Position numbers and translations under genes: made by a program. From an uncultured Candidatus Saccharibacteria bacterium (GTDB lineage Bacteria > Patescibacteriota > Minisyncoccia > Phycocordibacterales > UBA918), in assembly GCA_964608605.1 (NCBI GenBank), contig CAZSOS010000002.1:105569-169568 (forward strand): a stretch of DNA of 64,000 bases, given 5' to 3'. Of this stretch, positions 5,868 to 42,264 are shown piece by piece (the stretch's first letter is position 1; every line of letters starts with the position of its first letter). Under the pieces are notes generated by a model. That model saw only the letters and a list, made by a program, of their open reading frames with translations. It was not told where the DNA came from and did no database searches.

Positions 5868-7094
5868 ATGCAAACCACTTTGTCGCTCTTTTATTATCTG
5901 CTCTCCCAGGGTCTTGGCTTTGTGATCCTGACCGTCGCCCTGATCCTTTTCGTCATCTGGAGCATCAACGATCTCTACTCCAGGAAGACCATCGTGCTCT
6001 TATCGCTCATTTTGCTCGGCTGGATATTCTTCGGCCTCTTGCCGCTTGGCAATCTGGACTTCCGCTCCTACCCCTTCTCTCTCACCACCTACGGCCCCGG
6101 CGACGGTCCCATCCTGCCTTTCGGCAACATGCTCCGCTTCTTCCGCCAGGCTAACGACCTGGAGCGGGTCGCCGACATCGCCCGCGATCCGAACGAGGTG
6201 CCGCCGCCGATCGACCGCCGGGAACCGGCGGTCGTCGAGCTCAAGCTGACCGCCAAGGAAGTGGTGGCCGAGATGGCGCCCGGCGTCTACTTCAACTATT
6301 GGACCTTCGGCGGACAGGTTCCCGGCCCGATGCTGCGCGCCCGGGTCGGAGACACGGTGCGACTCACCCTGACGAACGACCCGTCGAGCCTGCATCATCA
6401 CAACATCGATCTGCACGCCGTCACCGGTCCGGGCGGCGGCGCCTCCGTCACCAACGTCGCGCCCGGCGAATCGAAGACCCTGACCTTCAAGGCGCTGAAT
6501 CCCGGCCTCTACGTCTACCACTGTGCTTACCCCAATATGGCCAATCACATGGCCCACGGCATGTACGGACTCATCCTCATCGAGCCGGAGGAGGGCCTGC
6601 CGGAAGTCGACCGGGAATTCTACGTCATGCAGGGCGAGTTCTACAGCACCGGCGGCCTAGGGAAACGCGGCCTGCAGGTCTTCGACGCCAAGGCCATGCT
6701 CGACAGCCGGCCGACCTACGTGGTCTTCAACGGCAAGGTGGGCGGCACGGTCGGCAACATGGAGGCGAAGGTCGGCGAGACCGCGCGCGTGTACGTCGGC
6801 AACGGCGGCGTGAACCTAATCTCCTCCTTCCATCTGGTCGGCGAGATATTCGACCGCGTCCACGCCGAAGGCTCGATCGGAAATTCCCCGCTTCAAAACG
6901 TCCAGACCACGCTGGTCCCGGCCGGCGGGGCCGCCATGGTGGAATTCGGACTCGAGGTACCGGGCACGTACGTAATGGTCGATCACGCGCTCTCCCGTGC
7001 CGACCGCGGCGCCTGGGGCACGTTGAACGTCTCGGGGACAGCCAGCAGCACCGTCTACGACGGCGTCCCGGGCGGCGGAGCGCACGGACATTAA
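5868..7094 (+). CDS. nirK: Copper-containing nitrite reductase (NirK) with an N-terminal membrane-anchor extension
   Basis: HNIDLHA is the type-2/type-1 Cu His motif. YVYHCAYPNMANHMAHGMYG gives the Cys-His-Met type-1 Cu ligand spacing. The two-cupredoxin length is right. The first ~70 aa form two predicted TM helices. Confidence 0.85.
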   Translation: MQTTLSLFYYLLSQGLGFVILTVALILFVIWSINDLYSRKTIVLLSLILLGWIFFGLLPLGNLDFRSYPFSLTTYGPGDGPILPFGNMLRFFRQANDLERVADIARDPNEVPPPIDRREPAVVELKLTAKEVVAEMAPGVYFNYWTFGGQVPGPMLRARVGDTVRLTLTNDPSSLHHHNIDLHAVTGPGGGASVTNVAPGESKTLTFKALNPGLYVYHCAYPNMANHMAHGMYGLILIEPEEGLPEVDREFYVMQGEFYSTGGLGKRGLQVFDAKAMLDSRPTYVVFNGKVGGTVGNMEAKVGETARVYVGNGGVNLISSFHLVGEIFDRVHAEGSIGNSPLQNVQTTLVPAGGAAMVEFGLEVPGTYVMVDHALSRADRGAWGTLNVSGTASSTVYDGVPGGGAHGH

Positions 7095-8723: not shown

Positions 8724-9008
8724 ATGATGTCTGGATTTTTCTCGTCTTTAGCGATTCGGGTCATCCCCTATCCGAAGCGGATGCCTAAATTCATAAATGA
8801 AGCGCTCAGCTATTGGTGGTTCTACCACAACACTCTGAGTGGCGCGCAAAAGTATCATGACCGGCGCCTCAAAGAGCTGGACCCCGCGTACCGACTCAGA
8901 GAAGCGCAGCATGACTTGGTATGGCAACGTGAAGTCGCCCGCAAGAACGGTATCGGGCCGGACAGCCCTGATTACCCCACTCTCGACACTGAAGAGTTGT
9001 TGCGCTAG
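8724..9008 (+). CDS. Hypothetical protein (94 aa)
   Basis: GGAGGA precedes ATGATG, and the gene is followed by a strong terminator. No recognisable motif. Confidence 0.45.
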   Translation: MMSGFFSSLAIRVIPYPKRMPKFINEALSYWWFYHNTLSGAQKYHDRRLKELDPAYRLREAQHDLVWQREVARKNGIGPDSPDYPTLDTEELLR

Positions 9009-9013
9009 CGCAA

Positions 9014-9063
9014 GCCCCGCCGACAAAACGCCCCGCGTTTTGTCGGCGGGGCGTTTTGTTTTC
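9014..9063. terminator. Rho-independent terminator
   Basis: GCCCCGCCGACAAAACG...CGTTTTGTCGGCGGGGC stem followed by TTTTGTTTT. Confidence 0.65.
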
Positions 9064-9355
9064 CTTCCTTACTCAAGAAAGTAAGGTGCTTCGTTTACCA
9101 GTTGACCATCATCCACGTATCTTTCCATATGGAGAGATACGTGGATGGATTTAATGAGCCGGCTTGTTATGGTTATCTGAACGCAGGCGTGGCGAAGCGG
9201 GGCATTTTGTTATTAATTTCAAAGTTCCAAGTTGCGATAAGACGTTATTTTCGAACAAGGTGGCGAGACTGGACTGAGGCGCGCGTGGGAGCCGTATTTT
9301 ACATACGGTGACGAGCGCGCCGAAGGAAGTCCGTCAGATTGACGAAAATTACGTC

Positions 9356-11035
9356 TTATTTTGTCAGTTTCTGGCGAGTGAGGGCTTGAGCCGCGTTCAT
9401 CGAGTGCTGATAGTAGAGAGCCTTCACCCCCTTCTTCCAAGCGGTCAGATACATCTGGTTGATGTCCTTCGGCGGCACCTGGGGCGGCACCATGATGTTG
9501 AGCGACTGACCCTGGTCGATGTACTTCTGGCGCACCGCCGCCTGGTCGATGACGATGTTCTGGTCGAGCTCGGGGAAGGTGCGGAAGACTTCCCTGTCCT
9601 CATCACTGAGGAAATCGAGATGCTGCACCGATCCGTCATGATCGCGGATCGAGTTCCAGACCTCCTTGGTGTTCTTCCCCTTCTCCTCCAGTAGCTCTTC
9701 GAGAAAAGGATTCTTGATGGTCACCTTGAGCTTGGCCACGTCCTTCACGTAGGCGTTGGACCAGACCGGCTCGATCGACTGCGATACCTGGCCCAGGATG
9801 AAGGCCGAGGAAGTGGTCGGCGCGATGGCGAAGATGGTGGTGTTGCGGCGGCCATACCCCTGGAGGATCTCCGGTTCGCCGAATTCTTCGGCCAGTTTCT
9901 TCGAGGCCGCGTCGCCCCTCTCCTTCAGGTTCTTCCAAATATCTTCGTTCAGCTTCGCCGCCTCGGCGCTTTCAAACGGGATCCGCTGGCTCTGCAGGTA
10001 CGAATGCCAACCGAGGACGCCGAGACCGAGAGCGCGGTGGTTCTTGGCGAAGTTGTACGCCCGCTCCATGAAGAGGAAGGCCTGCTTGTCCGAGCGCTTA
10101 TCGGAATCCCGAAGCGCCTCCAGGCGATCGCAGAAGTCGGTGATGACGGCGTCCAGGAGGGCCACCATCGTCTCCACGAAGTCGGTATCCTTCCACTCGT
10201 CGTAGTGGAGGAGGTTCATGGAGGACAAGCAGCAGACGAAGGAGTTGTTCTCGTCCGATGGCAGCATGATCTCGGAGCAGAGGTTCGAGGCCACGATCTT
10301 CAAGTCCTTGTCCTTGTAGACGTCCGGCTTGTGATTATTGGCGTTATCCGTGAACAGGATGTACGGATAGCCGATCTCGCCGCGGCGCTGGATGATCTTG
10401 GCCCAGACCTTGCGCTTGTCCTCGTCGCCGTCGATCATGGACTGCATCCACTCGTCCCCCACCGTCACCGCGTGGGTCATGTTCTGGATCGGATTGCCCT
10501 CGGTGCCGATCTCCAGGAACTCCAGGATGTCCGGATGTTCGACCGGCAAGTAGGGCGAGAAGGACCCGCGGCGCACCTTGCCCTGCGAGACGACGTGGAT
10601 CAGAGTCTCGAACATCTGCATGAAATGGACCGGGCCGTTCGAGGTGCCATTGTTGGTGATGTTGGCGCCTCGCGGCCGGAGCGCGCCGAAGTAGCCGGAG
10701 GTGCCGCCGCCGTATTTCGACATCATGCCGTTCTCGGCGTGGGTGTACATGATGCTCGACATGTCGTCGGCGATATAGGCGCCGAAGCAGCTGATCGGTA
10801 GCCCGCGGCCAAGGCCGAAGTTGGCCCAGACCGGCGTGGAGAACGAGATCCAGCCCTTTGAGGCGTAGTCGACAAGCTTGTCGGCGTAGCCGGGACGCTT
10901 AAGGATCTTCTCGGCGTAATCGGCGATCTGCCTGACCCGCTCTTCGGGGGTCTGCCCCTCTAGCGTGTAGCCTCGCGACATGAACTGCCGGGAGTTGTCG
11001 TTAAGCCAGTACCAGGATTTGCTGCGATCGGTCAT
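9356..11035 (-). CDS. nrdA: Class I ribonucleoside-diphosphate reductase alpha subunit, without an ATP-cone
   Basis: Active-site SNLCSEI, the C-terminal YY pair (ALYYQHS) and the thiyl-radical loop are present. At 559 aa it starts directly at the catalytic-core helix (WYWLNDNSRQFMSRGY) with no N-terminal ATP-cone. Confidence 0.9.
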   Translation of the reverse strand: MTDRSKSWYWLNDNSRQFMSRGYTLEGQTPEERVRQIADYAEKILKRPGYADKLVDYASKGWISFSTPVWANFGLGRGLPISCFGAYIADDMSSIMYTHAENGMMSKYGGGTSGYFGALRPRGANITNNGTSNGPVHFMQMFETLIHVVSQGKVRRGSFSPYLPVEHPDILEFLEIGTEGNPIQNMTHAVTVGDEWMQSMIDGDEDKRKVWAKIIQRRGEIGYPYILFTDNANNHKPDVYKDKDLKIVASNLCSEIMLPSDENNSFVCCLSSMNLLHYDEWKDTDFVETMVALLDAVITDFCDRLEALRDSDKRSDKQAFLFMERAYNFAKNHRALGLGVLGWHSYLQSQRIPFESAEAAKLNEDIWKNLKERGDAASKKLAEEFGEPEILQGYGRRNTTIFAIAPTTSSAFILGQVSQSIEPVWSNAYVKDVAKLKVTIKNPFLEELLEEKGKNTKEVWNSIRDHDGSVQHLDFLSDEDREVFRTFPELDQNIVIDQAAVRQKYIDQGQSLNIMVPPQVPPKDINQMYLTAWKKGVKALYYQHSMNAAQALTRQKLTK

Positions 11036-11160
11036 AATAAATTTAAAATTTAAATCTCAAAATGAAAACCGGACATTACGTTGGCGAGCCGCCGGGCGGC
11101 AAGCTGCATTTTACATTTTGAAATGTCATTTTGCACTTTGACATTTCAACTTTTCATTCT

Positions 11161-12474
11161 CTAGAAGAGGTCGTCGCTGGTAACGGAGGTCTGACGCTTA
11201 TTGTAGTTTATGCTGCGCTTATCGAAGAAGTCGACGTGCTTGGTGGCGATGACCTCGTCGTTGAACCACTCGGTCTTGTCGAGCATGGCCTCGTCGACCG
11301 AGAAGACGGCCGACATGCCGATGGAGATAAGCGAGTTATTGAGCCGGTGCTTGATGAATTCCTTGATCTCAGCCTTGGGCAGGAAGTCGAGCTCGCCGGT
11401 CTCGAAGATCCAGTCGACGATGGCGCTCTCGGCCTGATAAGCCTCGACGCACATCATGCGCACCGTTTCGCGATGCTCGACGTCGAACCATTCCGGGTGC
11501 TCGGCGCGGATGATGTTGATGATGTCGATGCCGAACATGCCGTGTATCTGCTCCTCCTTCGAGGTAGCTTCCACCGCGTTCGAGATGCCCTTGAAGAGGT
11601 TCTTGTGCTTATTGAAGGACATCATGATCAGGAACTGCGAGAACAGCGATACGTGCTCGATGAAGAGCGAGAAGAGGAGGACCGCCTGCGAGTACTCGCG
11701 CATCTCGCCGGTCTTGGCGAAGGCGTTGACCTTATCGAGGTACTCGACGCGCTTCTTGATGACCGGTACTTCGGTCAGTTTCTTGAACTCGTCGTTGAGG
11801 CCGAGGATCTCCAAGAGATGGGCGTAGGCGTCCATGTGGCGCACCTCGCTCTCGGCGAAGGTGAAGCCGACGGCGCCGACCTCCGGTTTCGGAATGCGCC
11901 CGTAGATATTGCCCCAGAAGCTCTTCACCGCAACCTCGATCTGCGCGATCGCCAGCATGGTCTTCTTGATGGCCTCGCGCTCATGATCGCCCACGCGGGT
12001 CTTGAAGTCGTCGATGTCGCGAGTGTAGTTGAACTCGGTGTGCACCCAGTACGAATGGCGGATGGCGGTAACGTACTCGTAGAGTTCGGGATACTCGTAA
12101 GGCTTCAGGTTGGCGCGCTTGCGGAAAAGGTCGCGTCTCCGGAGACGCTTGCGCTCCGCGCGGTAGATGATGTAAGCCTTGGCGGTCTCGAAGAAAGCGA
12201 GCTCCATGAGGCCGGCCTCCACCAGGTCTTGGATCTCCTCAACCGTCGGGTACCCATCGACGCATTTGCCGAAGTGATGGTCTCCCGGCTCGGCAGTGGC
12301 GGCCCCCACGCACATGGCGACGATCTTTTCATGCACTAGCTTAGCCACGCGCGCGGCCTCGGCCGCGCTTCCCTCCCCCGTCTCGCCAAAGGCCTTCAAG
12401 ACGGCGGCTTCTATCTTCTCGATCTTGAAGTCGACGACGGAACCGTCGCGTTTACGAATCTGAACGATCTCCAT
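11161..12474 (-). CDS. nrdB: Ribonucleotide reductase beta (R2) subunit carrying an N-terminal ATP-cone domain
   Basis: The N-terminus MEIVQIRKRDGSVVDFKIEKIEAAVLKAF... is an ATP-cone signature. It is followed by a ferritin-like di-iron R2 core (ESEVRHMDAY, FIEHVSLFSQF). Start chosen at the ATG at 12474. Confidence 0.85.
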   Translation of the reverse strand: MEIVQIRKRDGSVVDFKIEKIEAAVLKAFGETGEGSAAEAARVAKLVHEKIVAMCVGAATAEPGDHHFGKCVDGYPTVEEIQDLVEAGLMELAFFETAKAYIIYRAERKRLRRRDLFRKRANLKPYEYPELYEYVTAIRHSYWVHTEFNYTRDIDDFKTRVGDHEREAIKKTMLAIAQIEVAVKSFWGNIYGRIPKPEVGAVGFTFAESEVRHMDAYAHLLEILGLNDEFKKLTEVPVIKKRVEYLDKVNAFAKTGEMREYSQAVLLFSLFIEHVSLFSQFLIMMSFNKHKNLFKGISNAVEATSKEEQIHGMFGIDIINIIRAEHPEWFDVEHRETVRMMCVEAYQAESAIVDWIFETGELDFLPKAEIKEFIKHRLNNSLISIGMSAVFSVDEAMLDKTEWFNDEVIATKHVDFFDKRSINYNKRQTSVTSDDLF

Positions 12475-12701
12475 ATGCATGTAATTACTACGCCTGATAA
12501 ACAAAACCGCTTTCGCGGACACTGGTCTGCTCATATATACTCGCGCGCAAAGCCAATCGGGCAATACGGAATTGGATCTACGAACGAACTAGTGAACCTC
12601 CACGCGAAGATCGATGTCTTCGCGTACGCTAATGATAGCATCATCGGTCTTTTGCCCTTTTCGACACGAAAATGACCGGTAGACAAAAAAGCGGAAAATA
12701 A

Positions 12702-12734
12702 AGGGCGGTTTGGCCTCCGGCCAAACCGCCCTTT
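12702..12734. terminator. Hairpin terminator downstream of mscL
   Basis: GGGCGGTTTGGCC-TCCG-GCCAAACCGCCC followed by a T-run. Confidence 0.6.
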
Positions 12735-12805
12735 CCGAGTTATCCACAATCTCTTTCCCCGATCCGCACCAGCAATCATGTTTGCCAAAACGGCAAACTC
12801 CGAAT

Positions 12806-13213
12806 CTACCTCTTTAAGGAATCGCGGATCTCGCGCAAGAGCTTCACCTCCTCGGTCGGCTCGACGACCTTCTGCGACTCGGGCTTCGCTTCCTCCTTGC
12901 GTTCGAGGGAACGCAGGACCTTGATGGCCACGAAGATCGACCAGGCGATGATCAGGAAGTCGATGACGGACTGCAGGAACACCCCGTAAGTGACGGTGGC
13001 GTCGCCCACGGACACGGATAAGCCCTTGAAGTCGATGCCGCCGGTCACCACCCCGAAAAGCGGCATGATGATGTTGTCGACCAGCGACGAGACGATCTTG
13101 TTAAAAGCGGTACCGATGACGACCGCCACCGCCAGGTCCAGCACGTTGCCCTTCAGCGCGAAGGCTTTGAATTCCTCCAAAAATCCTTTGGCTTTGTTCT
13201 TATATGGATTCAT
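12806..13213 (-). CDS. mscL: Large-conductance mechanosensitive channel
   Basis: [51 protein letters not shown] is a canonical MscL N-terminus. Confidence 0.9.
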
Positions 13214-17765: not shown

Positions 17766-18038
17766 TCAATGACGGATGGAAAAATCGTCGTGAACGGTCT
17801 TGATCGAACGCCATTCGACCGCCACCGCCTCGACCTTGGAAAGCAACGATCCCTCATGGAGGTGCTCGACGAACTCCTTGAGCACGGTCGGATCGGCCTG
17901 CGCCACGATCTCGACCGTGCCGTCAGGCAAGTTGCGGGCATAGCCGGTCACGCCCAGTTGGTCGGCCGCGGCCTCGACGTAGGCTCGATAGGCCACCGCC
18001 TGGACCTTGCCGGACACGATGCAATACATCTCTACCAT
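17766..18038 (-). CDS. acyP: Acylphosphatase
   Basis: 90 aa. VSGKVQAVAYRAYV matches the VxGxVQGVxFR motif family, and NLPDGTVEI is present. Confidence 0.85.
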   Translation of the reverse strand: MVEMYCIVSGKVQAVAYRAYVEAAADQLGVTGYARNLPDGTVEIVAQADPTVLKEFVEHLHEGSLLSKVEAVAVEWRSIKTVHDDFSIRH

Positions 18039-18105
18039 GACTCGAAGTATAATCCATCCTAAATATAAAACCGAGAGCTTTGACCACTCTCGGTTTCATA
18101 TCATG

Positions 18106-18179
18106 TGGGCGCTGAGGGATTCGAACCCCCGACCCTCTAGGTGTAAGCTAGATGCTCTAACCAACTGAGCTAAGCGCCC
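18106..18179 (-). tRNA. tRNA-Val (anticodon TAC)
   Basis: Acceptor GGGCGCT/AGCGCCC. D-arm GCTCAGTTGGTTAGAGC. Anticodon loop CTTACAC. A hairpin plus T-run terminator lies immediately downstream on the minus strand (18071-18096). Confidence 0.85.
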
Positions 18180-18367
18180 CTCCTGCCGCCACATACTACC
18201 TGTTTTCAAGGATTTTTCAACACGTGGAAAATCTGTTAGGGTTAGGGGCGAGGAAGATTCCTCGCCCTTGTAAGAAACTTCTTCTTCGCTCTCCCCTGTA
18301 TGAGTAATTCATACAGGACCAGCGTTCGGAACCAAAATGTAAGCCAGCTTTCATTTGTTCCTCACTT

Positions 18368-18439
18368 GCCCCTGTAGTTAAATGGATATAACTGCGGACT
18401 TCTAAGCCGTTATTCTTGGTTCGATTCCAAGCGGGGGCA
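18368..18439 (+). tRNA. tRNA-Arg (anticodon TCT)
   Basis: Acceptor GCCCCTG/CGGGGGC with one GU pair. Anticodon loop CTTCTAA. T-arm CTTGG/TTCGATT/CCAAG. There is one A:G mismatch closing the anticodon stem. Confidence 0.75.
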
Positions 18440-18535
18440 CAAGTTAATGCTAGGATGAGCGACCGAAGAGAATCGTAGAATCGGCAACAAAACCACTCTT
18501 CGAGTGGTTTTGTTGCGTCATATCAAAGCCGGTAG

Positions 18536-19312
18536 CTACTCGACACGAATCGACTCGTAGAACGCAGAGCACCAAGGTTCCCTGGCGCCGGGACAGCCTG
18601 TAAACTTGTATGTATACTGAGAACCTTCAAGAAAAAATCCGTAATCTCCCATGTGTGACCTCTCCGCGCACTCGATGCCAGAAATATGATCATTGATTGA
18701 CTTCTCTTTACATTCGCCTTCTGCAAAACTTGCCGTGAGACTAGCCAGCGAACCGGCAGGAAACAGGATAACGTTATTATGTGCGACACCACCTGACTCC
18801 AAACATCCTTCGGGACAAGGATTAAGAGTCCCAAACACAATCGTGCCCACCCCAAATTCCTCTGTCCGATCATAGGGTGTCAACTGATAATATGGCGCAC
18901 CCCATCCAGCATTGTACGGCACTTGCATAGAAAGACCGTCCGCATAATATGGCACGAGCATATAAGGGGAATTTTCATCTTCTGCCCGATAAAGACGAGG
19001 TCTGTCTTCTTTCGAAATGCCAAAGCGCTCCATCAACTCAAGCTCGCGCGCCTCAAGCGCAGAGCGGGAGAATATCGGTCTAGACACCGAAAATGTTTGT
19101 ACGCTTTCCGTAGTCTGTGATGACTCTACCTCCAAGGGAAGCGCTCCCTCTTCAGAGATAGAAAGCGGAGAAGCGTACCAATATCCAAGGGAAAACCCTA
19201 CAAACGGCAAAACAACGAGGAGCGCGAGCGTAAGGTACTTAGAGAGTGGCGTAACGCGATTCCACCAAGGTGTTTCGGCTACGCTGGTCGAATCCATGTT
19301 TTCTGAGTCCAT
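18536..19312 (-). CDS. Hypothetical membrane-anchored Cys-containing protein, in a lower-GC stretch
   Basis: N-terminal TM segment. No recognisable domain. Local GC is visibly lower than the surroundings. Confidence 0.45.
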   Translation of the reverse strand: MDSENMDSTSVAETPWWNRVTPLSKYLTLALLVVLPFVGFSLGYWYASPLSISEEGALPLEVESSQTTESVQTFSVSRPIFSRSALEARELELMERFGISKEDRPRLYRAEDENSPYMLVPYYADGLSMQVPYNAGWGAPYYQLTPYDRTEEFGVGTIVFGTLNPCPEGCLESGGVAHNNVILFPAGSLASLTASFAEGECKEKSINDHISGIECAERSHMGDYGFFLEGSQYTYKFTGCPGAREPWCSAFYESIRVE

Positions 19313-22833: not shown

Positions 22834-23292
22834 ATGGGAGCACGTCGTCCAAACTGCGAATGCACTGTCTGCGGCCAACGAATATATAGGAGACCTTTGC
22901 AAATTGAAGGTGGTCAAATTTTTTGTTCGCGCCAGTGTAGCGGTAAACATCAAAGAAAGGTGCGCGTCTGCGAAATTTGTAAGAAGGATTTCTTGGGTAT
23001 AAAGAAAAAATATTGTTCGCGGTCTTGTTCCAATAAATCTCGTACCGGTACAAAGTATAAAATCGGTAAACCGCACGACAAAGCGTTTTTGGTCAACAGT
23101 CTGAAGAAACAACTTGCTGACGCAAGAGGCGGTACATGTGAACGTTGCGGAGAGAAAAACTATGCCATATTACAGATCCACCATAAGCTAGAAAAACACC
23201 GTGGGGGCAACGATAAACCAGAAAATCTTGAATTGCTTTGTCCCAATTGCCATTATTCTAACCACTTTGGCTTTCGTTTGTTCAAGAGCTGA
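22834..23292 (+). CDS. HNH endonuclease with an N-terminal Cys-rich zinc-ribbon region
   Basis: The HNH motif is ILQIHHKLEKHRGGNDKPENLELLCPNCH. There are several CxxC pairs. The gene lies in an AT-rich segment (about 40% GC). Confidence 0.85.
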   Translation: MGARRPNCECTVCGQRIYRRPLQIEGGQIFCSRQCSGKHQRKVRVCEICKKDFLGIKKKYCSRSCSNKSRTGTKYKIGKPHDKAFLVNSLKKQLADARGGTCERCGEKNYAILQIHHKLEKHRGGNDKPENLELLCPNCHYSNHFGFRLFKS

Positions 23293-23320
23293 AATGATGC
23301 TAGAGTGCTCCTTAATAAAC

Positions 23321-23405
23321 GGAAGCGTAGCCAAGCGGTTTAAGGCACTTGTCTTGAAAACAAGCGTATCGAAAGGTACCGTGAGTTCGAATCTCACCGC
23401 TTCCG
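23321..23405 (+). tRNA. tRNA-Ser (anticodon TGA), type II
   Basis: Acceptor GGAAGCG/CGCTTCC. Anticodon loop CTTGAAA. Long variable arm. T-arm GTGAG/TTCGAAT/CTCAC. Confidence 0.85.
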
Positions 23406-23471
23406 CACTAAGAACCTGTTATCGGCATGACCCGAGTACCTAAGTTCGTAGATTTAAGCTAAAATAAGACC

Positions 23472-24251
23472 ATGAACCGAGGCTTTATTCAAATACCAAT
23501 TCTGATCGCCATACTTGCTGGTATAGCGGTATTTGGTGGCGCTGGGTATGTTGCATACGAAGCTAGTCAGAAGTCTTCAGTTCCAGCCGAAGAATCAGTA
23601 ATCGAATCGACTACTGAAGCATCACTTGGAGAATCTGACGACGTTTCCACCACTTCTGCAGTTAAGACAAATAACGATATCATACAGAAAGAAATGCCTG
23701 CGTCACCGAAAGCCATAGTGTCGCCAGTTATTCCTGCAGCCACAGCTCCTTCAACATCTACACCAACGCAGATATCACTTACTGCTCAAATTCAAACACC
23801 GACCTCTACTGCATCGACAACGGCAAGTGCACCTACACCAACCGTTGCGCCAGCAGTTACTCCAACTCCAAAAGTAAAAGTTACCGCAAGTCCTGAAAAT
23901 GTTGAGTATAATGGCACCTCAGTTATTAGTTGGGTTGCCACAGACGCCTTGTCATGCACACTAGGTTCTTCTCCTGTTCTTCTTGCTGTCACAGGCTCTC
24001 ACTCAGTCGAGCCAACTGACCCTGGCGACGACTGGACAAAGACAAATAAGAAAACCTACTCTATTACATGCACTGGTACAGGTGGTTCTGTTTCTGAAGA
24101 TGTCACGGTAACCGTTCAATCCTGGGTACCACCTGCCGGATATAAAGTCTTACCGTATGGCCAATGCACTAGAGCAACAGCACCTTGTATTACAGGACCC
24201 GGTTTTGGCACGATATGTGAATTTGGCGGTGGATGTAGCACCGGTGGCTAA
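23472..24251 (+). CDS. Secreted/surface protein: TM anchor, Ser/Thr/Pro-rich linker, C-terminal Cys-containing beta-sandwich-like module
   Basis: A low-complexity TSTPT linker, then YSITCTGTGGSVSEDVTVTV, the same C-x-G-x-GG module seen in the CTD proteins. Lower GC than the backbone. Confidence 0.55.
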   Translation: MNRGFIQIPILIAILAGIAVFGGAGYVAYEASQKSSVPAEESVIESTTEASLGESDDVSTTSAVKTNNDIIQKEMPASPKAIVSPVIPAATAPSTSTPTQISLTAQIQTPTSTASTTASAPTPTVAPAVTPTPKVKVTASPENVEYNGTSVISWVATDALSCTLGSSPVLLAVTGSHSVEPTDPGDDWTKTNKKTYSITCTGTGGSVSEDVTVTVQSWVPPAGYKVLPYGQCTRATAPCITGPGFGTICEFGGGCSTGG

Positions 24252-24257
24252 ATTGCC

Positions 24258-24740
24258 ATGTCGCTTCCTAGTATCACAATTCAAATATCTGCCGATAGTG
24301 TTGCTTGGTATGGGGCAATAATCGCAACAATTGCGGCGGTGGTTTCAATTTATAATGCTTGGCGTGACCGCTCTCGAATAGCTTTAGAGTTTGGTAAAAA
24401 CTTTCGTCGCGTCGAAGAATGGGATCAAGCGCTCTTCTATATCTCGATTGTGAACCGTGGACGGCGACCTGTAAAAATTGATAAGGCATGGGTGAAACTT
24501 TACGGATATAAAGGAGAGGCCTTAATAGCCGATAGCTTAGGTACACGCTTAGACCGCACACTGGACGAGAGAAATCCAAAAATTACCTTTTGGGCAAAAG
24601 AAAGCACTTTAGATACGAGTCGCATTTATTGCGTTTTTGCCTCAGACGAAACTGGAAGAGTATACAAGAGATACATCACGAATTTCCCAACATTTATGCG
24701 GCTATGGTGGGTCTTTAAAAAGAAAAGTGTAGCAAAGTAA
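24258..24740 (+). CDS. Hypothetical membrane-anchored protein (island gene)
   Basis: N-terminal TM segment. About 42% GC. No motif. Confidence 0.45.
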   Translation: MSLPSITIQISADSVAWYGAIIATIAAVVSIYNAWRDRSRIALEFGKNFRRVEEWDQALFYISIVNRGRRPVKIDKAWVKLYGYKGEALIADSLGTRLDRTLDERNPKITFWAKESTLDTSRIYCVFASDETGRVYKRYITNFPTFMRLWWVFKKKSVAK

Positions 24741-24871
24741 TTTTATTTACCCATGACCCACATGCCTCATTTCAACCTCTGAAAGTTTGCTGAAATACCT
24801 TTATGGTGCCTCACCGCCCTGGTACTGAACCCGAGTAGCCCGCATCGAAGATGTGATCCAGTGCCGTATAA

Positions 24872-25498
24872 TTGTCCATTATGGCCAAACGATCACAGAA
24901 CCTGAACCGGTACTTCCTCCAGGACATCAATCCGGTGGTGCGCTTCCTCATCGTCTCGGAAACGGTGAGCGCCGGCGCGGTCGGACTCCTGGGCCCGATC
25001 TTCGCCCTCTTCATCGATGACTTCATCATCGGCTCGAACGAAGCGGTGGTCGGTCTGGCGGCTGGCATCTTCCTCTTATCGAAGAGTCTCTTCCAGATAC
25101 CGATCGCGCATTACCTGGATCGGATCCGCGGCGAGAAGGATGACTTCTGGTTTCTCTTCGGCTCGACGGTGCTCACCGCCCTCATTCCCCTACTTTATCT
25201 GGTCATCGATACTCCGATGGAACTGTACCTGGTCCAGTTCGCGCTGGGTATCATCACCGCCGCCACCTATCCGTCTTTCATGGCCATCTTGACCCGACAC
25301 ATGGATAAAGGAAAGGAAGGCATGGAATGGGGCATCTATTTCACCCTGACCGACATCTCGAGCGCGGCCTTAGCCATCATCGGCGGCTTCGTGGCCGCCA
25401 CCGCCGGTTTCCCGGCACTCATCACCGCCGTCGTGATCATCTCGCTAATGAGCGCCGTCTTGATGGTACCGATAAGACCGTATCTCAAAAAGAGGTAG
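24872..25498 (+). CDS. Six-TM membrane protein (half-MFS-like)
   Basis: About six hydrophobic helices. A TATAAT sits 9 nt upstream of the ATG, so the transcript may be leaderless. Confidence 0.5.
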   Translation: MSIMAKRSQNLNRYFLQDINPVVRFLIVSETVSAGAVGLLGPIFALFIDDFIIGSNEAVVGLAAGIFLLSKSLFQIPIAHYLDRIRGEKDDFWFLFGSTVLTALIPLLYLVIDTPMELYLVQFALGIITAATYPSFMAILTRHMDKGKEGMEWGIYFTLTDISSAALAIIGGFVAATAGFPALITAVVIISLMSAVLMVPIRPYLKKR

Positions 25499-35639: not shown

Positions 35640-37802
35640 ATGCCAATTAACACCCCTTACGCCCGCGCCGCCAAAAATTTATTGCCTTTGTTATTGATAA
35701 CCTCCCTCCTGTCGCCATCACTGCTTCCGGCTAGGATCCTAGCCGCGTCTAGTATCGACAACGGCTCCGAAAGTGCCGGAGCTAAAGGCAGCAGTCCGAG
35801 CGACAGCGGTAGCTATAGCGGCAGCGACTCAGGGACCACCGGGTTCGAGGGCTCACCTGAGGTAGGCCCCACAGCGGCGGCTCAGACATCAAACGACGCG
35901 GTGGCGACCGAAGTGGCTGCCACCGCCGGCCCCGGCATCAGCGTGACGCCGGTCGACGCCAGTTCTCCGCACGCTCCAGCGCCGGGAAGTAGCGTCAATG
36001 TCAACGGCGTACAAATGGGCGTGGAGGACGCGCGCGGGGCCTTGGACGCCATAAGCAAGTCCAATGGAGTAGCCGACGTCCAGGCGACCCTAGCCGCTTG
36101 GGCCGACCCTAAAGGCACCATCGAAGCGGGACAGGTCGTCGGACCGTATGGGCACGTCGGCCTCCCGGAGGCAGTGGCTCGAGAAACCGCCACGGTGCAG
36201 GCCGGAATAAACGCTATCTCCTTTGCCAACTCACTACCTACCGGAGTATTGGATCCAGGTCGGCTTGGTTACGACCCGAACAGCTGGAGCAACATCCAGT
36301 CACGACTGGAAGTGATCAACGTGGTCAGTGCTCCGGTGAGCAGGACTCAGACCGGACAGATCGAATACGCTAACGTAGTGGGAGTCGGCAAGGACGCTCA
36401 GGATAAAACTCAGACAAGTCCAGAGTATGAAACCAGGGTCCATACCAACGCGGACGTAGCCGCCAGAATGGCCGCGGCCGGTTTCAATCCTGACGGCTCT
36501 TTGCAAAGAGCGGTAACCATAGATTACGGGAATATAATGGGCGTCACCAAAGGAACCGTCAAAGATTATCAAGCCAATGGCACTCTCGACAGCAAGATCG
36601 CCATGGAGCAGAACATGATCGGCATGGCTCTCAACTCCAGCATAGATAAAGCCCAACTAGGACAAGTCGACCCTAACAGCATAGAGAATCACGGCAAGGT
36701 CGATAACCGAGACACCAATGGTGCTTTCGCTAAATCCCTAGACGACACGATCACCCCTGGTTTATGGGTGGACAGCAACCTCACCGGTAAGCAGGAACTG
36801 GCCATGAGTTATTACGCCAATATAGTCGGATATACTGCGAATCAAGCTGCCGGTATCATAGGTAATTTTAAAGCGGAGAGTAACCTGGACCATCTGGAAG
36901 AAGCGGCTGGCCGGGAGCGTTCCAGTGGCCTGGCTCAATGGAACGCTGCCGCGGCTGCCGGCGAACGCAGACAAGCACTGGAGGATTACGCTGGAGTGAA
37001 ATTTTCCGAGCAACTCGTTAACGGCAGACACACCTCAGGTCCGGGGGCTTTCACGCAACTAGCGTTCACCGTGGCTGAAATGGAAGGAAGATTGACGGGA
37101 CATAAAGACCCTCAGTCAGAAGCTGTGGGCCGCAGTTTCAACGCGAATCCGAATATGACGGCCGCTCAAGCTGCTGAAGAATTCCAAAATGGCTTTGAAC
37201 GGCCAGCTGACCGCTCTCACTCTATTGCCGCCAGACAGAACGGGGCAAGCGAAGCATTGACCGCGTACAACAACCTGGACCCAGGTCGGGAAAACTTCAC
37301 TACCGGTAGCGTATCCGGGCAGCCAGGACAAACCGGTGGTCAGGGCGGCAAGACCGGCAGTGACCAACCCTCGAGGCAAAGCGGGGGTTTTGGTCAGGTG
37401 GAATTCGGAGTCGGTGGATTTCGTGTTACCGTCGACACTGACAAGATCGCCGACCTATTTAGCAATATGTTCTCCGGGTCGGGAGGAGATGGAGGAGCAC
37501 CGGAATACACCGATCTGTCATTCACCGGTAGCGATGATACCGGAAATTCCCTGGAGCTGGAACGGGTCGATATCACCCCGGGCAGGCCCGGCATCTGCCC
37601 CGCCGGACCGGCCGAAGAAGGATTTTCATTCAACATAAAATTCCTCAACAAAGAACACACTGATCAGGTCTACAGCTGTAAGGGTCAGACCACGGCGGAC
37701 AACTTCAATATAGTCACGGCTTATCTCAAGAATTACGAAACCGATAACGTGCAAGATGTCGACGTACTGAGCAAGATGCGGGTCACTTCGGCCAAGTATT
37801 GA
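35640..37802 (+). CDS. Giant secreted protein (720 aa) with a lysozyme-like (phage-tail-lysozyme-type) peptidoglycan hydrolase domain
   Basis: The leader is MPINTPYARAAKNLLPLLLITSLLSPSLLPARILAASS. The internal domain has GIIGNFKAESNLD...GLAQWN..R...L, as in the phage tail lysozyme family. The C-terminus has a YSCKGQTT module. Confidence 0.65.
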   Translation: MPINTPYARAAKNLLPLLLITSLLSPSLLPARILAASSIDNGSESAGAKGSSPSDSGSYSGSDSGTTGFEGSPEVGPTAAAQTSNDAVATEVAATAGPGISVTPVDASSPHAPAPGSSVNVNGVQMGVEDARGALDAISKSNGVADVQATLAAWADPKGTIEAGQVVGPYGHVGLPEAVARETATVQAGINAISFANSLPTGVLDPGRLGYDPNSWSNIQSRLEVINVVSAPVSRTQTGQIEYANVVGVGKDAQDKTQTSPEYETRVHTNADVAARMAAAGFNPDGSLQRAVTIDYGNIMGVTKGTVKDYQANGTLDSKIAMEQNMIGMALNSSIDKAQLGQVDPNSIENHGKVDNRDTNGAFAKSLDDTITPGLWVDSNLTGKQELAMSYYANIVGYTANQAAGIIGNFKAESNLDHLEEAAGRERSSGLAQWNAAAAAGERRQALEDYAGVKFSEQLVNGRHTSGPGAFTQLAFTVAEMEGRLTGHKDPQSEAVGRSFNANPNMTAAQAAEEFQNGFERPADRSHSIAARQNGASEALTAYNNLDPGRENFTTGSVSGQPGQTGGQGGKTGSDQPSRQSGGFGQVEFGVGGFRVTVDTDKIADLFSNMFSGSGGDGGAPEYTDLSFTGSDDTGNSLELERVDITPGRPGICPAGPAEEGFSFNIKFLNKEHTDQVYSCKGQTTADNFNIVTAYLKNYETDNVQDVDVLSKMRVTSAKY

Positions 37803-38444: not shown

Positions 38445-38589
38445 CCCGCCGCGGACCCTGGACCATAAAAGACCCCTACCTTAGGGGTCTTTTCTTATCT
38501 CCCGTTCATCGATAGCCATTCTTGTCTCTATCGCGTATGTGTATAAGGAGCGGGTATTTCCAGAGCCTCAGCATACAATATGTACATAT

Positions 38590-41500
38590 ATGTTAATCAC
38601 AACCATGGCACCCCGCTTTTTATCCGTATTATTAATAATCTCCCTCCTCTCTCCCTCACTCCTACCGTCAGTGGTGTTCGCCCAAAGTAGCGGCGATAAG
38701 CAAGAAGCTGGCGATGAGGGTGAAGACTCCGCCGCGGCAGCAGAAGCGGCGGCGGAAGCTGCCGCCCAAACGGTGAATGAAATGGCCAGTCTGGCGGCCG
38801 GACTGGAAGGGCGTTCCTTTACTGCTTCGTCAGTAGGAGGAGCCAATTTCGATGCCAACAATCCTTCCGTCAACATAACCGCCGACACTGGTGAGACCTT
38901 CACCATGACCACCGATCAGGCAGTAGCGGCGGCGGGAGCGATCGGCGACGCGCAAGCCGCTGGTATCAGTACCTCCAACAACTCCAATTCCCCGGGAGTG
39001 GACGTGGCCGCCACTCTGGAGGCACATTCCCAGGGCGAGACGGGCGTGGTCGTGGGATCCATGTCCGGTGAAATAGGGACCCCCGCCGCGGTGGCTCAGG
39101 CGGAGATAGCGGCGGCCAGCCGGCAAAGCTCGGTCAGCGCCCTAAGCGACGCGGCTTTTGATTCAAGGTTCGCGGGTGCGGCTGCTATTCAAGGGAGTGA
39201 TCTCAACCAGGCATTGGCCGCAGCCTATGGGCAGCTAGCCAATAGCGCCAAGCAAGCTGGTATCTTAACCCTGGGCGGCACTACCCAAGTAGGACCGACC
39301 GGCAACGTAAATGCTCAGTACACCATGAACCAGGCCCTGGTTGCCTCATACCAACAATACGCGAACGTACTAGGTCAGTCTGGTAACCTCGGTCTTTCAG
39401 GCACCACCAACACTTCCTACTCTTACGATAGGTCGACCGGGTCATGGGTCGGCGACCAAAACGGACGAACGTATACGACTCAAGAAGTGGTCGGCGGCAA
39501 CAAAGACTTCAGAGACGCGGCCGCGGAATTCGAAAGGACCAACAACAGGTCATACGTCGATTTCTTCGAAGAAGCTCTGGAAAAGGACTCTGGACGTTTC
39601 CAAGTCTCTTTAGACTTTAGGACGAATCAAATAATCGCGACAGATATTGTTACGGGCCAGATAACCGGCACTAATCTGACGACCGGCACGACCGAGAATC
39701 TGGGCGGAATTTTCCAATCATACGACTCCACTACCGGGACAAATCTGGGATACACTCCACCAGCTGGTACTTCCCTGGCTTTCACCGCTACTGGTCTTGG
39801 CAATTATCAAGTGATCAACGCCAAAGCCGAGCCTCCCAAAGAATCCTTTGTGGGTGCCTATGACACTAAACTTTCCAACTCTGCGGCTAGATCTATGCTA
39901 GATGGTAACGTTACGGTAAAAGACGGAGTAAGCTTCGAGGGAGCACGCGCCAGCACCGTAGCCACAGCTAACCAACTAGCTAAAGATTGTAACTGTGTAG
40001 TACCCATAACTTCCGTGACCGATGGAAAGCATGCCGGCGGTAAAAACTCTCATGGAAATGGTGCCAAATTCGATGTCAGTGACTGGCGATCTCTTGAGTT
40101 CACCTCGTACGTAACCGGCGGAAAAAATGGTTGGACTCAAACCGGCACGCGTGGTGGTGGCCACGGAGGACCGATATACACCAACCCTGATTTCCCTGAG
40201 GTTAATATAGTATACGAGAAAAGTTACCATCACTTTGATATACAAGTCGTCGGAGACGTCGGTAAGGCTGGTCTTGAGATCACTTATGCAACTGGTTCAA
40301 TATTCGAAGGATCACTTCACGCGGACCTGCCCCCAGGGGAGTCATTGAGCACTAACTTTTCAAACATACCCGGAGGAGATGAAACTTCACCCGGATCTCA
40401 AGGCGGATCAAACCCTACCCAACCTGGCAACGTATCACCCGACAGTGGTAAAAGCCTGCCCGATATCATGGCTGATGGAATGGACAGGGTCGGTATCGAT
40501 CCCAACAGCGGGATCGGAAGAGGCGTGCTGGGTTTGGCCGCGGCGGCCGACAATCTGCTCGGCCGGTTCGGTATAGATTTTAATGACCTGATGAGCGGCG
40601 GCGGAGCGGGTCCAGGAAATGAAACGGATGCCCAGGGTGCTGACGCTATGACCTGCCCCTACCCCCTTTCCTGCGACGATAACGACCTGGGAGCGTCGGT
40701 CATCACCGCCATCGCTCCAAACTTAGATGTCGTAAGTTGGGTACTTCGAATTTGGAACCTGGTATCAAACAGCGAAGACAAGGAAGTATCGGTGCCAGCA
40801 GGATATGCCCCCACGCCTGATGCCGTACTGGTAGAGATCGTGACCCATCTGTCTGACAACGCCATTGAAGTACATCGTCCCGACATCGAAGCCACCTTGG
40901 CCAATCCTCGTCTTTACTACACCGAAAAACAATACGAGCAACTCGTCGCTTTACTGAGCGAAGAACCGATACTTACCGACCAAGAAGGTTCCATCATCTA
41001 CTCGAACGGCCTCTATTCCCCGCCGGTCGTTGACGGCCGATACGTGGAGGGTTCTCCTAAGTACGTTTACGTGCTCAAGCAGATCGATGAGAGTGGTAAC
41101 GAATTGCCTGCCACCGATGACAGCGAACCCGGAGGGTTGCTAAACCGGGTGTTGAAGCAGGTATTTGGTGACACTTCCCCGTTTAAAACGGACTCGATCG
41201 AGACCGTATCCTACCGCTTGATCGATCCGGACATGGATACTCCAGCAGATGAATACTATGACTACCTCTTTACCTTGAAGGATGGCAGCGAAAGAGCGGT
41301 GGCGGTGCCGCAATTCTCCTCAGTGGCTCATATGGCGAATAAATTCCGCGACATCGGCTACCAAGGAACGCCTCTGGATATATTGATCATGGCCACGGAG
41401 ACAAACTTGCCTCCAGAAAGAGGTTTGATCGGCAAGATATCGGACTGGATCGGCTCTTTGGTCGGACGCTTCATGCCGAGTTTGACCGAAAACCAAACAA

Positions 41501-42264
41501 CGACCACTTTGCCAGAAACAAAGCGAGGATATTCCGCTGACAACATAGCCAGTGTTTTCATCTACCCTAATGCCGCCGTAGACTGTCCAAACATCGAAGG
41601 ATACCAAAATGGTTACATGTACACTGCCACCATTAACGACCCCGATCGTCCCGGATATATGACCCTGGTCACGGAAGGAAGGTGCGGAAGCGGCGGCGAA
41701 GAGGACTTCTTGGCGGACGCGCTGCAACAGCTGGAGAGCCGCTGGGGATTGGCCGGAACCATAGCCGACTCGACCATGAATAAGGTCAGATTCCGATTTG
41801 AAGAAACTCCATATAAACCAGGTTTGGCCATCGCGTATGTAGGCACCGATGTTCCTTCTGGATCCACGGACCCCGAACCAGCGACTCCAGACCCTGAACC
41901 TGCGGCCACGTCCACCACCCAACTCCCCAACCTCACCAACACCATCACCTTTGAAGTGAAGGCGGTGGGAAGCGAAGGAAAAGTGCTGGCCGACTGGACT
42001 CAAGCGGAGCGGATAACCGTGGCTCCAGGAGTACAGCTATACTTCCGCTGGAATGGGACCGATTACCAGCAGTGTCTTCCCTTCCTCAACGACAACGGCA
42101 ACTACGCGTTGACGGTGCGGAACCGAGCCATGACCACGGGCAACACCGAGAGCGAGGGATACAATATCAACGAAAGGAGTGGCGTGTACCGCCTTGAATG
42201 TGGCGGACAGAGAAACAATGAATTCGGGGTGGATGCTAGGGAGATCGAAGTAGAGGTGAGATAG
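38590..42264 (+). CDS. Giant secreted protein (about 1220 aa) with a putative M15/LAS-type metallopeptidase (VanY/endolysin-like) domain
   Basis: Leader MLITTMAPRFLSVLLIISLLSPSLLPSVVFAQSS is paralogous to that of the 720-aa protein. There is an Ala/Gly/Thr-rich N-terminal third. KHAGGKNSHGNGAKFDVS and YEKSYHHFDIQ resemble the H-x-D / WHF zinc motifs of M15 peptidases. The C-terminal module is YRLECGGQ. The start is ambiguous: 38539 GTG, 38590 or 38605 ATG. Confidence 0.6.
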   Translation: MLITTMAPRFLSVLLIISLLSPSLLPSVVFAQSSGDKQEAGDEGEDSAAAAEAAAEAAAQTVNEMASLAAGLEGRSFTASSVGGANFDANNPSVNITADTGETFTMTTDQAVAAAGAIGDAQAAGISTSNNSNSPGVDVAATLEAHSQGETGVVVGSMSGEIGTPAAVAQAEIAAASRQSSVSALSDAAFDSRFAGAAAIQGSDLNQALAAAYGQLANSAKQAGILTLGGTTQVGPTGNVNAQYTMNQALVASYQQYANVLGQSGNLGLSGTTNTSYSYDRSTGSWVGDQNGRTYTTQEVVGGNKDFRDAAAEFERTNNRSYVDFFEEALEKDSGRFQVSLDFRTNQIIATDIVTGQITGTNLTTGTTENLGGIFQSYDSTTGTNLGYTPPAGTSLAFTATGLGNYQVINAKAEPPKESFVGAYDTKLSNSAARSMLDGNVTVKDGVSFEGARASTVATANQLAKDCNCVVPITSVTDGKHAGGKNSHGNGAKFDVSDWRSLEFTSYVTGGKNGWTQTGTRGGGHGGPIYTNPDFPEVNIVYEKSYHHFDIQVVGDVGKAGLEITYATGSIFEGSLHADLPPGESLSTNFSNIPGGDETSPGSQGGSNPTQPGNVSPDSGKSLPDIMADGMDRVGIDPNSGIGRGVLGLAAAADNLLGRFGIDFNDLMSGGGAGPGNETDAQGADAMTCPYPLSCDDNDLGASVITAIAPNLDVVSWVLRIWNLVSNSEDKEVSVPAGYAPTPDAVLVEIVTHLSDNAIEVHRPDIEATLANPRLYYTEKQYEQLVALLSEEPILTDQEGSIIYSNGLYSPPVVDGRYVEGSPKYVYVLKQIDESGNELPATDDSEPGGLLNRVLKQVFGDTSPFKTDSIETVSYRLIDPDMDTPADEYYDYLFTLKDGSERAVAVPQFSSVAHMANKFRDIGYQGTPLDILIMATETNLPPERGLIGKISDWIGSLVGRFMPSLTENQTTTTLPETKRGYSADNIASVFIYPNAAVDCPNIEGYQNGYMYTATINDPDRPGYMTLVTEGRCGSGGEEDFLADALQQLESRWGLAGTIADSTMNKVRFRFEETPYKPGLAIAYVGTDVPSGSTDPEPATPDPEPAATSTTQLPNLTNTITFEVKAVGSEGKVLADWTQAERITVAPGVQLYFRWNGTDYQQCLPFLNDNGNYALTVRNRAMTTGNTESEGYNINERSGVYRLECGGQRNNEFGVDAREIEVEVR

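Follow-up and report, generated by a model that had tools for sequence, protein, structure and literature searches.

An nrdB-nrdA operon from Patescibacteria encoding a class Id ribonucleotide reductase with an ATP-cone and a cysteine pair on NrdB and no C-terminal cysteines on NrdA

INTRODUCTION

The class Id ribonucleotide reductase (RNR) of Leeuwenhoekiella blandensis carries its ATP-cone on the radical-generating beta subunit, NrdB. In this enzyme, ATP favors the beta2 dimer and the active alpha2beta2 complex. dATP, two molecules of which bind to each cone, leads to cone-cone contacts, to which helix 3 of the cone contributes, and to beta4 and nonproductive alpha2beta4 or alpha4beta4 complexes (PMC5794259). 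The 2018 paper on this enzyme counted 93 cone-bearing NrdB sequences, mostly from Flavobacteriales, and in its data set a cone-bearing NrdB was always accompanied by a further RNR in the same species (PMC5794259). Beta-borne cones occur almost only in operons in which the beta gene precedes the alpha gene (Burnim et al. 2022, PMC9669993). On the alpha side, a pair of cysteines in the C-terminal tail is stated for all class I RNRs (PMC6187632; PMC9669993). Here, we describe an nrdB-nrdA operon in a 64-kb stretch of bacterial DNA (the window). The cone-on-beta architecture itself was already described in 2018, and this locus is a further member from a different phylum. We found that its NrdA has no C-terminal cysteines, that its cone contains a conserved cysteine pair, and that the operon has a conserved RNA helix in its leader. 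An earlier reading of the window from the sequence alone (the sequence-only reading) had described the architecture and left these three features unmentioned.

RESULTS

A class Id operon with the ATP-cone on NrdB

The sequence-only reading had recognized the two-gene arrangement, which we confirmed, with the amendment that both genes sit on the minus strand. The genes and the cone are placed as follows.

11161 to 12474, minus strand: nrdB, class Id radical-generating subunit with an N-terminal ATP-cone (437 aa; open reading frame [ORF], Pfam, and 5OLK match)
9356 to 11035, minus strand: nrdA, cone-less class Id catalytic subunit (559 aa; TIGR02510, 779 bits; 6DQX, 707 bits)
12136 to 12474, minus strand: ATP-cone domain, NrdB residues 1 to 113 (alignment to the 5OLK cone and AlphaFold2 model)

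We found that NrdB matches the Pfam ATP-cone family PF03477 (E 1.3e-18, 67.7 bits, cut-off 25.8) and, after the cone in the same ORF, the family Ribonuc_red_sm, PF00268 (E 2.3e-56). The PF03477 match falls into two stretches because the cone carries an insertion. The best match of NrdB in the PDB is 5OLK, the cone-bearing NrdB of L. blandensis (563 bits), which aligns over residues 2 to 437 including the cone. The next matches are 6SF4, the cone-deleted form of the same protein, and then the cone-less class Id betas 8DQ3 and 6CWO. Residue equivalences were taken from the numbering of PMC5794259 and the 5OLK alignment. The metal ligands E180, E210, H213, E273, E307, and H311 are kept, as are the class Id-typical residues K184, W187, Y217, and T304, with positions aligned to L. 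blandensis E170, K174, W177, Y207, E263, and T294. In class Id betas, the Lys points at the metal site and the Tyr is held away from the metals. We infer that NrdB would carry the dimanganese radical cofactor of class Id, Mn2(IV,III) with no tyrosyl radical.

For NrdA, Pfam reports only the barrel and, weakly, the all-alpha N domain. There was no PF03477 match in NrdA, and its 559-aa ORF begins at the all-alpha N domain. The ORF from 9356 to 11035 is already the longest reading frame possible there; therefore, no in-frame cone can be encoded upstream of nrdA. NrdA scores 779 bits against NCBIfam TIGR02510, "NrdE-prime" (cut-off 602), and 718 bits against PRK09102 (cut-off 620), and its best PDB matches are the class Id alphas 6DQX (707 bits) and 6DQW (618 bits). 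The active-site cysteines C83, C253 (in NLCSE), and C268 are present, as is the radical-transfer pair Y541-Y542. By their sequences, both proteins are clear class Id (NrdAi/NrdBi) enzymes. This is what the sequence-only reading had proposed from a cone fused to the ferritin-like core of NrdB and a 559-aa NrdA without a cone, and the Pfam and PDB matches agree with it. The "Flavobacterium-type enzyme" that it mentioned is that of L. blandensis, a member of the family Flavobacteriaceae (PMC5794259).

We collected relatives by scanning one genome per species and kept the best 80 of 247 loci (L001 to L080). The closest among these best 80 of 247 come from Patescibacteria metagenome-assembled genomes (MAGs), UBA918 at 91% identity and Candidatus Kaiserbacteria at 89 to 90%, and Flavobacteriaceae (Maribacter) appear only at ~60%. 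We concluded that the host is a Patescibacteria bacterium (Kaiserbacteria/Paceibacteria-like). All 80 loci, most of them from Patescibacteria MAGs, have a cone-bearing nrdB, and nrdA comes next wherever the downstream DNA suffices. This order agrees with that reported by Burnim et al. (PMC9669993). Evidently, the cone-on-beta arrangement is also common in Paceibacteria; thus, the sequence-only reading named the right arrangement but called it rare, which does not hold in the host group (80 of 80 loci). In a literature search, we found no paper that ties ATP-cones to the candidate phyla radiation or NrdBi to a cysteine insertion.

We took the start of nrdB at the ATG that gives MEIVQIRKRDGSVVDFKIEKIEAAVLKAF (MEIVQIRKRDGS...). 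In frame with it are also an ATG at 12480, two codons farther upstream, and a TTG at 12564. The sequence-only reading had raised the possibility that the true start is an internal Met after the cone, which would make the cone vestigial or misannotated, and no obvious Shine-Dalgarno sequence lies ahead of the nrdB ATG. However, the cone is kept at the protein level over the 80 loci, down to ~60% identity, with its nucleotide-binding and interface motifs intact, and its PF03477 score is far over the gathering threshold. In the 80 related loci, the protein also starts at the same M-E-I...KRDG point or no more than a few residues away from it, which rules out an internal start. We consider a vestigial or misannotated cone extremely improbable.

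Predicted activity control through the NrdB cone

AlphaFold2 gave a confident model of NrdB residues 1 to 135 (mean predicted local distance difference test [pLDDT] score, 84). The best fold matches of the model are dATP-binding cones, those of 5OLK, Pseudomonas aeruginosa NrdA (5IM3), and Prevotella copri NrdD (8P28). All residues named in PMC5794259 for the cone-cone interface are kept, namely, D83, E86, M90, K99, I102, I103, and R105, which are the equivalents of positions 73, 76, 80, 89, 92, 93, and 95 in L. blandensis. According to our model, the operon would encode a class Id aerobic RNR in which NrdA is a minimal, cone-less catalytic barrel and overall activity is switched via the ATP-cone on NrdB, as in L. 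blandensis. In the ATP state, the beta dimer would form the active alpha2beta2 complex, and dATP on the cone would lead to a beta4 tetramer and then to nonproductive alpha2beta4 or alpha4beta4 complexes. We give a probability of about 80% to this reading, in which a class Id operon of Patescibacteria most likely has its activity switched via the NrdB cone as in L. blandensis. Inhibition by dATP and tetramerization are the parts of it predicted from homology.

Several points weigh against this reading. The cone is only ~41% identical to that of L. blandensis, and the 13-residue insertion adjoins helix 3, an interface contributor in L. blandensis; therefore, nucleotide affinity or oligomerization could differ. 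For the whole clade, the mechanism is presumed from homology. In addition, the absent alpha tail described below shows that the catalytic cycle differs from the one known for the characterized class Id enzymes.

A conserved cysteine pair in the cone

The insertion that splits the PF03477 match is bounded by two cysteines.

12262 to 12312, minus strand: Cys55-x15-Cys71 loop joining cone helices 2 and 3, with an insertion of 13 residues that 5OLK lacks (gap in the alignment to 5OLK)

We found that C55 (in ..AMC..) and C71 (in ..KC.DG.P) are invariant in 57 of 57 long-loop sequences (L001 to L056 and the window), and the loop between them is variable. The same pair surrounds a loop of only 7 to 8 residues in L081 to L083, a sister group that we reached via NrdA homologues. 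Because the pair is kept over loop lengths of 7, 8, 14, and 15 residues, the cysteines, and not the loop, are the conserved feature. In the cone model, helix 2 is extended to residue 59 with C55 within it, residues 60 to 71 form an ordered loop, and C71 stands just before helix 3 (pLDDT, 85 to 89). The pair is not general to Patescibacteria cones, since related NrdD cones that are up to 51% identical lack it. As far as our search reaches, the pair appears to be specific to NrdB.

One possibility is that the pair, next to the nucleotide pocket, forms a disulfide with a structural or regulatory function, or a metal site, and tunes ATP/dATP sensing or tetramerization according to its redox state. 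Tail loss in alpha would then have no connection with the pair, and a redoxin or small thiol would reduce alpha directly. Consistently with this, the pair flanks the link between helices 2 and 3, just ahead of the conserved P-T-V-E-E-I-Q-D start of helix 3, the helix that takes part in the cone-cone interface of L. blandensis. The model predicts an ordered loop, and a variable loop length with fixed end cysteines is typical of a disulfide-closed loop. A Cys2His2 metal site is unlikely, because the His residues of the window's loop are not conserved. The disulfide also leaves unexplained why tail loss is repeated in, and confined to, the clade with the cysteine pair. We regard it as a possible role for the pair, to be held tentatively.

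NrdA lacks the C-terminal redox tail

The end of nrdA encodes the following segment.

9356 to 9415, minus strand: NrdA C terminus after the YY pair, YYQHSMNAAQALTRQKLTK plus stop codon, without cysteine

NrdA ends in ...LYYQHSMNAAQALTRQKLTK (...RQKLTK), with no Cys after Y542. The canonical CxxC redox tail is missing from this protein. We compared the complete operons among the fetched loci and found that those without the cone cysteine pair all end in CxxC[EQ][AGS] (22 of 22), whereas 43 of the 50 with the pair have no tail cysteines. Seven operons (L009, L010, L015, and L081 to L084) have both the pair and the tail. A displaced CxxC tail was not found downstream in any frame in any of the 43 tail-less loci. 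We also scanned all small ORFs in 81 loci for redoxin motifs and found no redoxin gene beside the operon in the cysteine-pair clade; a glutaredoxin (Grx)-like ORF occurs only at L062, outside this clade.

We saw the same division in wider samples of NrdA. At 71 to 92% identity to the window protein (n = 120 clusters), 84 clusters lack the tail pair and 35 have it. For a broader view, we took the best 150 representatives at 50% identity out of 1.8 billion, of which 130 have a recognizable end. These comprise 126 with a C..C pair, 1 with C-x-C, 2 that are fragment-like, and 1 (P0215) with its tail on a separate ORF. We rejected P0215 as a tail-less alpha outside the clade: the locus is phage-like, and a ...CSACEG tail is encoded on a 72-aa ORF immediately downstream. 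Tail loss is thus essentially confined to the cysteine-pair clade.

Two side observations concern nrdA in other genomes. The phage-like locus L085:627-4883 (Logan SRR22000252 contig) has an RRXRR/HNH endonuclease gene between nrdB and nrdA, and its NrdA CSACEG tail is encoded by an ORF of its own (72 aa), which overlaps the nrdA stop. Separately, many close NrdAi representatives (P0091 to P0240) are 850 to 1,650 aa long and match the query in two to four separate stretches. This suggests that the long representatives hold intein insertions; the window NrdA has none.

Order of events and possible role of the cysteine pair

We built neighbor-joining (NJ) trees of NrdA, NrdB, or both, with the tail and cone removed before building. 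The long-loop (C-x14/15-C) group was monophyletic in 86 to 100 of 100 NJ bootstraps. With L081 to L084 added, the whole cysteine-pair clade was monophyletic on a single concatenated NJ tree, which was not bootstrapped. Lineages that bear the tail turn up at scattered places in the clade, with L009, L015, and L084 as sisters of the window's tail-less group and L010 placed within another tail-less group. Their retained tails read ...TRQKIC-x-x-CE[AG] and are continuous with the clade-typical ...TRQK; therefore, retention is favored over reacquisition. When only losses were allowed, we counted at least 5 independent tail losses in 98 to 100 of 100 bootstraps with NrdB alone and with NrdA and NrdB concatenated, and as few as 3 with NrdA alone. 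The minimum under any topology seen was 2. These counts imply that the tail was lost independently at least twice and probably five times or more.

In a scan of alignment columns, C55 and C71 of NrdB were the only Cys positions present in 43 of 43 tail-less pairs of proteins yet rare (3 of 25) in tail-bearing pairs. The order of events is that the cysteine pair was gained first and the alpha tail was then lost repeatedly, the pattern expected if the tail was dispensable in the ancestor of the clade.

This pattern raises a second possibility, namely, that C55 and C71 took over the role of the alpha CxxC, either by shuttling thioredoxin or glutaredoxin electrons to the alpha disulfide or by recruiting a redoxin, and thereby made the tail dispensable. 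In its favor are the two cysteine columns themselves, the retention of the pair across all four loop lengths, and the placement of scattered tail-bearing lineages within one monophyletic clade, which implies at least 2 independent losses. Tail loss was not seen outside the clade (22 of 22 scored operons have the tail, and 126 of 130 representatives have C..C), and neither a displaced tail nor a neighboring redoxin gene was found. A redox module at the N terminus of beta also has a partial precedent, the Grx::ATP-cone::NrdB fusion of Facklamia ignava (PMC6187632). However, the evidence is purely correlative, and the members of the clade could have a different, unseen permissive trait in common. 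The C-x15-C pattern does not resemble a redoxin motif. In the model, moreover, C55 lies within helix 2, and the two cysteines form the base of the ordered loop. Because the pair would sit on a loop base and not on a flexible arm, its reach to the buried alpha active site is sterically doubtful. We therefore regard a transfer of the redox role to the cone as rather doubtful, and a structural or regulatory disulfide as at least as likely.

A candidate regulatory RNA in the nrdB leader

Two elements lie in the DNA ahead of nrdB.

12536 to 12593, minus strand: conserved RNA helix in the nrdB 5' leader (covariance-model match, 48.8 bits, E 3e-9)
12494 to 12518, minus strand: small CCGC-GAAA-GCGG hairpin with UUUUGUUUAUCAG after it, ~20 nt ahead of the start codon (read from the sequence)

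We aligned 27 leaders by hand and found a 20-bp helix that is 87% paired, compared with 35 to 43% when the partners were slid. In this alignment, 15 pairs changed on both sides. There are also many conserved U-G pairs, which indicates that the RNA is on the sense strand. With a covariance model, 44 of 85 sources, 17 of them outside the seed, gave exactly one strong plus-strand match at each locus, and this match lay just upstream of nrdB in every case. The model matched nothing else in 920 kb and nothing in loci with cones that lack the cysteine pair, and matches on the opposite strand were far weaker. The resulting 44-sequence alignment was fitted to the covariance model and so leans towards structure; in it, the helix is 87% paired versus 31 to 42% when slid, with 134 compensatory cells versus 54 in shuffles. 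Taken together, these data suggest that the leader helix is a candidate cis-regulatory RNA of the RNR operon.

The small hairpin with its U-tract lies ~18 nt downstream of the helix. In the close relatives L001 to L004 and L006 to L008, its stem shows covariation and the TTTATCAG/TTTATTAG segment is conserved.

We also looked for known elements. With Rfam 15, no family matched the leader helix; only tRNAs reached the gathering score in the window, and an E-value scan of positions 9000 to 13000 up to E 5 returned only noise (microRNA and small nucleolar RNA models with E above 0.2). The window's leader has no NrdR box (ACACWATATATWGTGT-like) matching at 12 or more of 16 positions; a 15-of-16 match occurs only at L063, a locus with a cone without the cysteine pair. 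We found no nrdR gene in the 64-kb window by tblastn with Escherichia coli NrdR. A scan of positions 9000 to 13000 for sigma-70 promoters and terminators detected nothing that resembles a promoter, and the operon's coding strand had no terminator-like site. Elsewhere, a LOOT RNA (RF03000, 75 bits) lies at L026:899-1014 on the minus strand, ~5 kb upstream of nrdB in a Nomurabacteria relative.

The boldest combination of these features would be a thiol relay moved from the alpha tail to the beta ATP-cone, such that one module serves on/off control and electron delivery, in an operon governed by an undescribed leader RNA rather than by NrdR. We think that this combination is unlikely.

The spacer between nrdB and nrdA is lineage specific

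The genes are 125 bp apart, as the sequence-only reading had measured.

11036 to 11160, minus strand: nrdB-nrdA spacer (125 bp, 35% G+C)

The pattern CATTTTNCAYTTT occurs twice in the spacer and 3 times in the window, where 0.29 occurrences are expected per 64 kb. A direct repeat of 20 nt (80% identical) is also present in the spacer, and the nrdB stop is followed at once by a perfect inverted repeat of 11 nt, TTGAAATGTCA/TGACATTTCAA, with arms at 11118 to 11128 and 11139 to 11149. A 30-nt imperfect inverted repeat pairs the 5' part with an A/T-rich stretch just before the nrdA start, and a GC stem, GCCGCC/GGCGGC, forms the apex (11088 to 11100). The whole spacer can fold as one long imperfect hairpin, with a minimum free energy (MFE) z score of -2.9; 2 of 200 shuffles fold as well. 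The CATTTT/CACTTT repeats of which the sequence-only reading had found the spacer full are present, but they are mostly the two arms of hairpins and form no tandem array.

The overrepresentation of the pattern could instead reflect a tandem array of protein-binding sites or an internal nrdA promoter. L004, which has the closest similar spacer, shares with the window the AAAATG-type repeats, the final TTTTCATTTTGAGATTTAAATTTTAAATTTA segment, and the last ~30 nt. On the other hand, Tandem Repeats Finder detected no tandem array besides a 16-nt AAATTTA run, the repeats pair with each other as hairpin arms, and no sigma-70-like promoter was found. The spacers of relatives range from 0 to ~270 nt and are mostly unrelated to that of the window. 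Most are 0 to 60 nt, so the operon does not need such an element. An array or promoter is therefore quite unlikely. We concluded that the spacer is lineage specific and lies outside the conserved system; its hairpin may set the relative expression of nrdB and nrdA or mask the nrdA start.

Other elements occur in the spacers of relatives. In L001, L004, L008, L009, L021, L026/L027, and L043, an imperfect hairpin of ~115 to 120 nt begins right after the nrdB stop (e.g., L009:2674-2793). The five that we folded have MFE z scores of -5.8 to -9.0, and the apical motif CAC(U/C)C(G/A)CCGUA...UACGUCU is kept in seven of eight. This hairpin belongs to no Rfam family and is absent from the window. Rfam gave no family at the spacer in the loci of eight relatives. 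L034 has an unrelated hairpin at the same spacer position. Palindromes of the GTCGCGA(C/T) type are found near nrd genes, in leaders or spacers of L011, L014, L023, L026, L029 to L034, L037 to L040, L047, L048, and L051 to L054. They are common in Paceibacteria loci, do not occur in the window, and may be a protein-binding site.

Other features of the window

We looked for a second RNR among the four largest ORFs of the window, which encode a protein with a phage-lysozyme domain, a 1,241-aa protein of unknown type, DNA polymerase I, and a class A penicillin-binding protein; none is an RNR. The first of these, a 720-aa protein with a phage-tail-lysozyme domain (35640 to 37802, plus strand), is followed by the 1,241-aa ORF, which has no Pfam match (38539 to 42264, plus strand). 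The two may belong to a cell-surface or predatory apparatus or to a prophage remnant. At 5868 to 7094 on the plus strand, a 408-aa two-domain multicopper oxidase/cupredoxin protein of NirK-like size with an N-terminal membrane segment is encoded, an unexpected protein for a very small Patescibacteria genome. The G+C content falls to 0.44 to 0.48 at 18000 to 19000 and 23000 to 25000, compared with ~0.57 elsewhere. These dips lie near tRNA genes (Val, Arg, and Ser) and may mark islands.

DISCUSSION

The cone cysteine pair, the tail-less NrdA, and the leader RNA helix appear to be undescribed so far. A whole clade of class I reductases is without the alpha cysteine pair that reviews call universal, and tail loss recurs only where the cone has its own invariant pair. 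This gives RNR biochemists a testable question: how the active site is rereduced without the tail, and whether an ATP-cone can double as a redox module. Regulation through a cone on beta is common in Patescibacteria, bacteria with tiny genomes and a dependence on nucleotide economy, and the leader helix is a candidate for cis-regulation of RNR expression by RNA in a group without evident NrdR boxes.

Comparison with known systems

Compared with a canonical class I alpha such as E. coli NrdA, the window's NrdA has the same active-site cysteine trio and YY pair. In contrast, the tail cysteines (C754/C759 in E. coli) are absent here and in 43 of the 50 complete operons of the cysteine-pair clade. 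Among alphas of solved structure, the closest are the minimal, cone-less class Id alphas from Flavobacterium johnsoniae and from Actinobacillus ureae (6DQW, 618 bits; 6DQX, 707 bits). The beta cores of these systems (6CWO) are also homologous to ours (323 bits), but their betas lack the ATP-cone that NrdB carries here.

Like the window's NrdB, the Grx::ATP-cone::NrdB protein of F. ignava is a class Id NrdB with an N-terminal cone (PMC6187632). It differs in having a full glutaredoxin domain with CPWC, whereas the NrdB described here has no redoxin domain and only the cone cysteine pair. In addition, the F. ignava NrdA appears, from the published reverse primer, to keep its C-terminal Cys, unlike the alpha described here.

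In gene control, the operon resembles nrd operons under NrdR-box control in that a putative regulatory element lies directly upstream of the RNR genes. The element differs in kind: here, it is a strand-specific covarying RNA helix, and the leader has no recognizable NrdR box.

The closest described system is that of L. blandensis (5OLK, 6SF4; PMC5794259). Its cone lacks the 13-residue, cysteine-bounded insertion, and its host belongs to Flavobacteriia rather than Patescibacteria. Maribacter L079 and L080, the Flavobacteriaceae loci closest to L. blandensis, keep the C-terminal CxxC that the window's NrdA lacks. With L. blandensis itself, the window's operon shares the two-gene architecture, the gene order, and the cone fold, together with the residues named for the cone-cone interface, the ligands of the metals, and Lys, Trp, and Tyr around the metal site.

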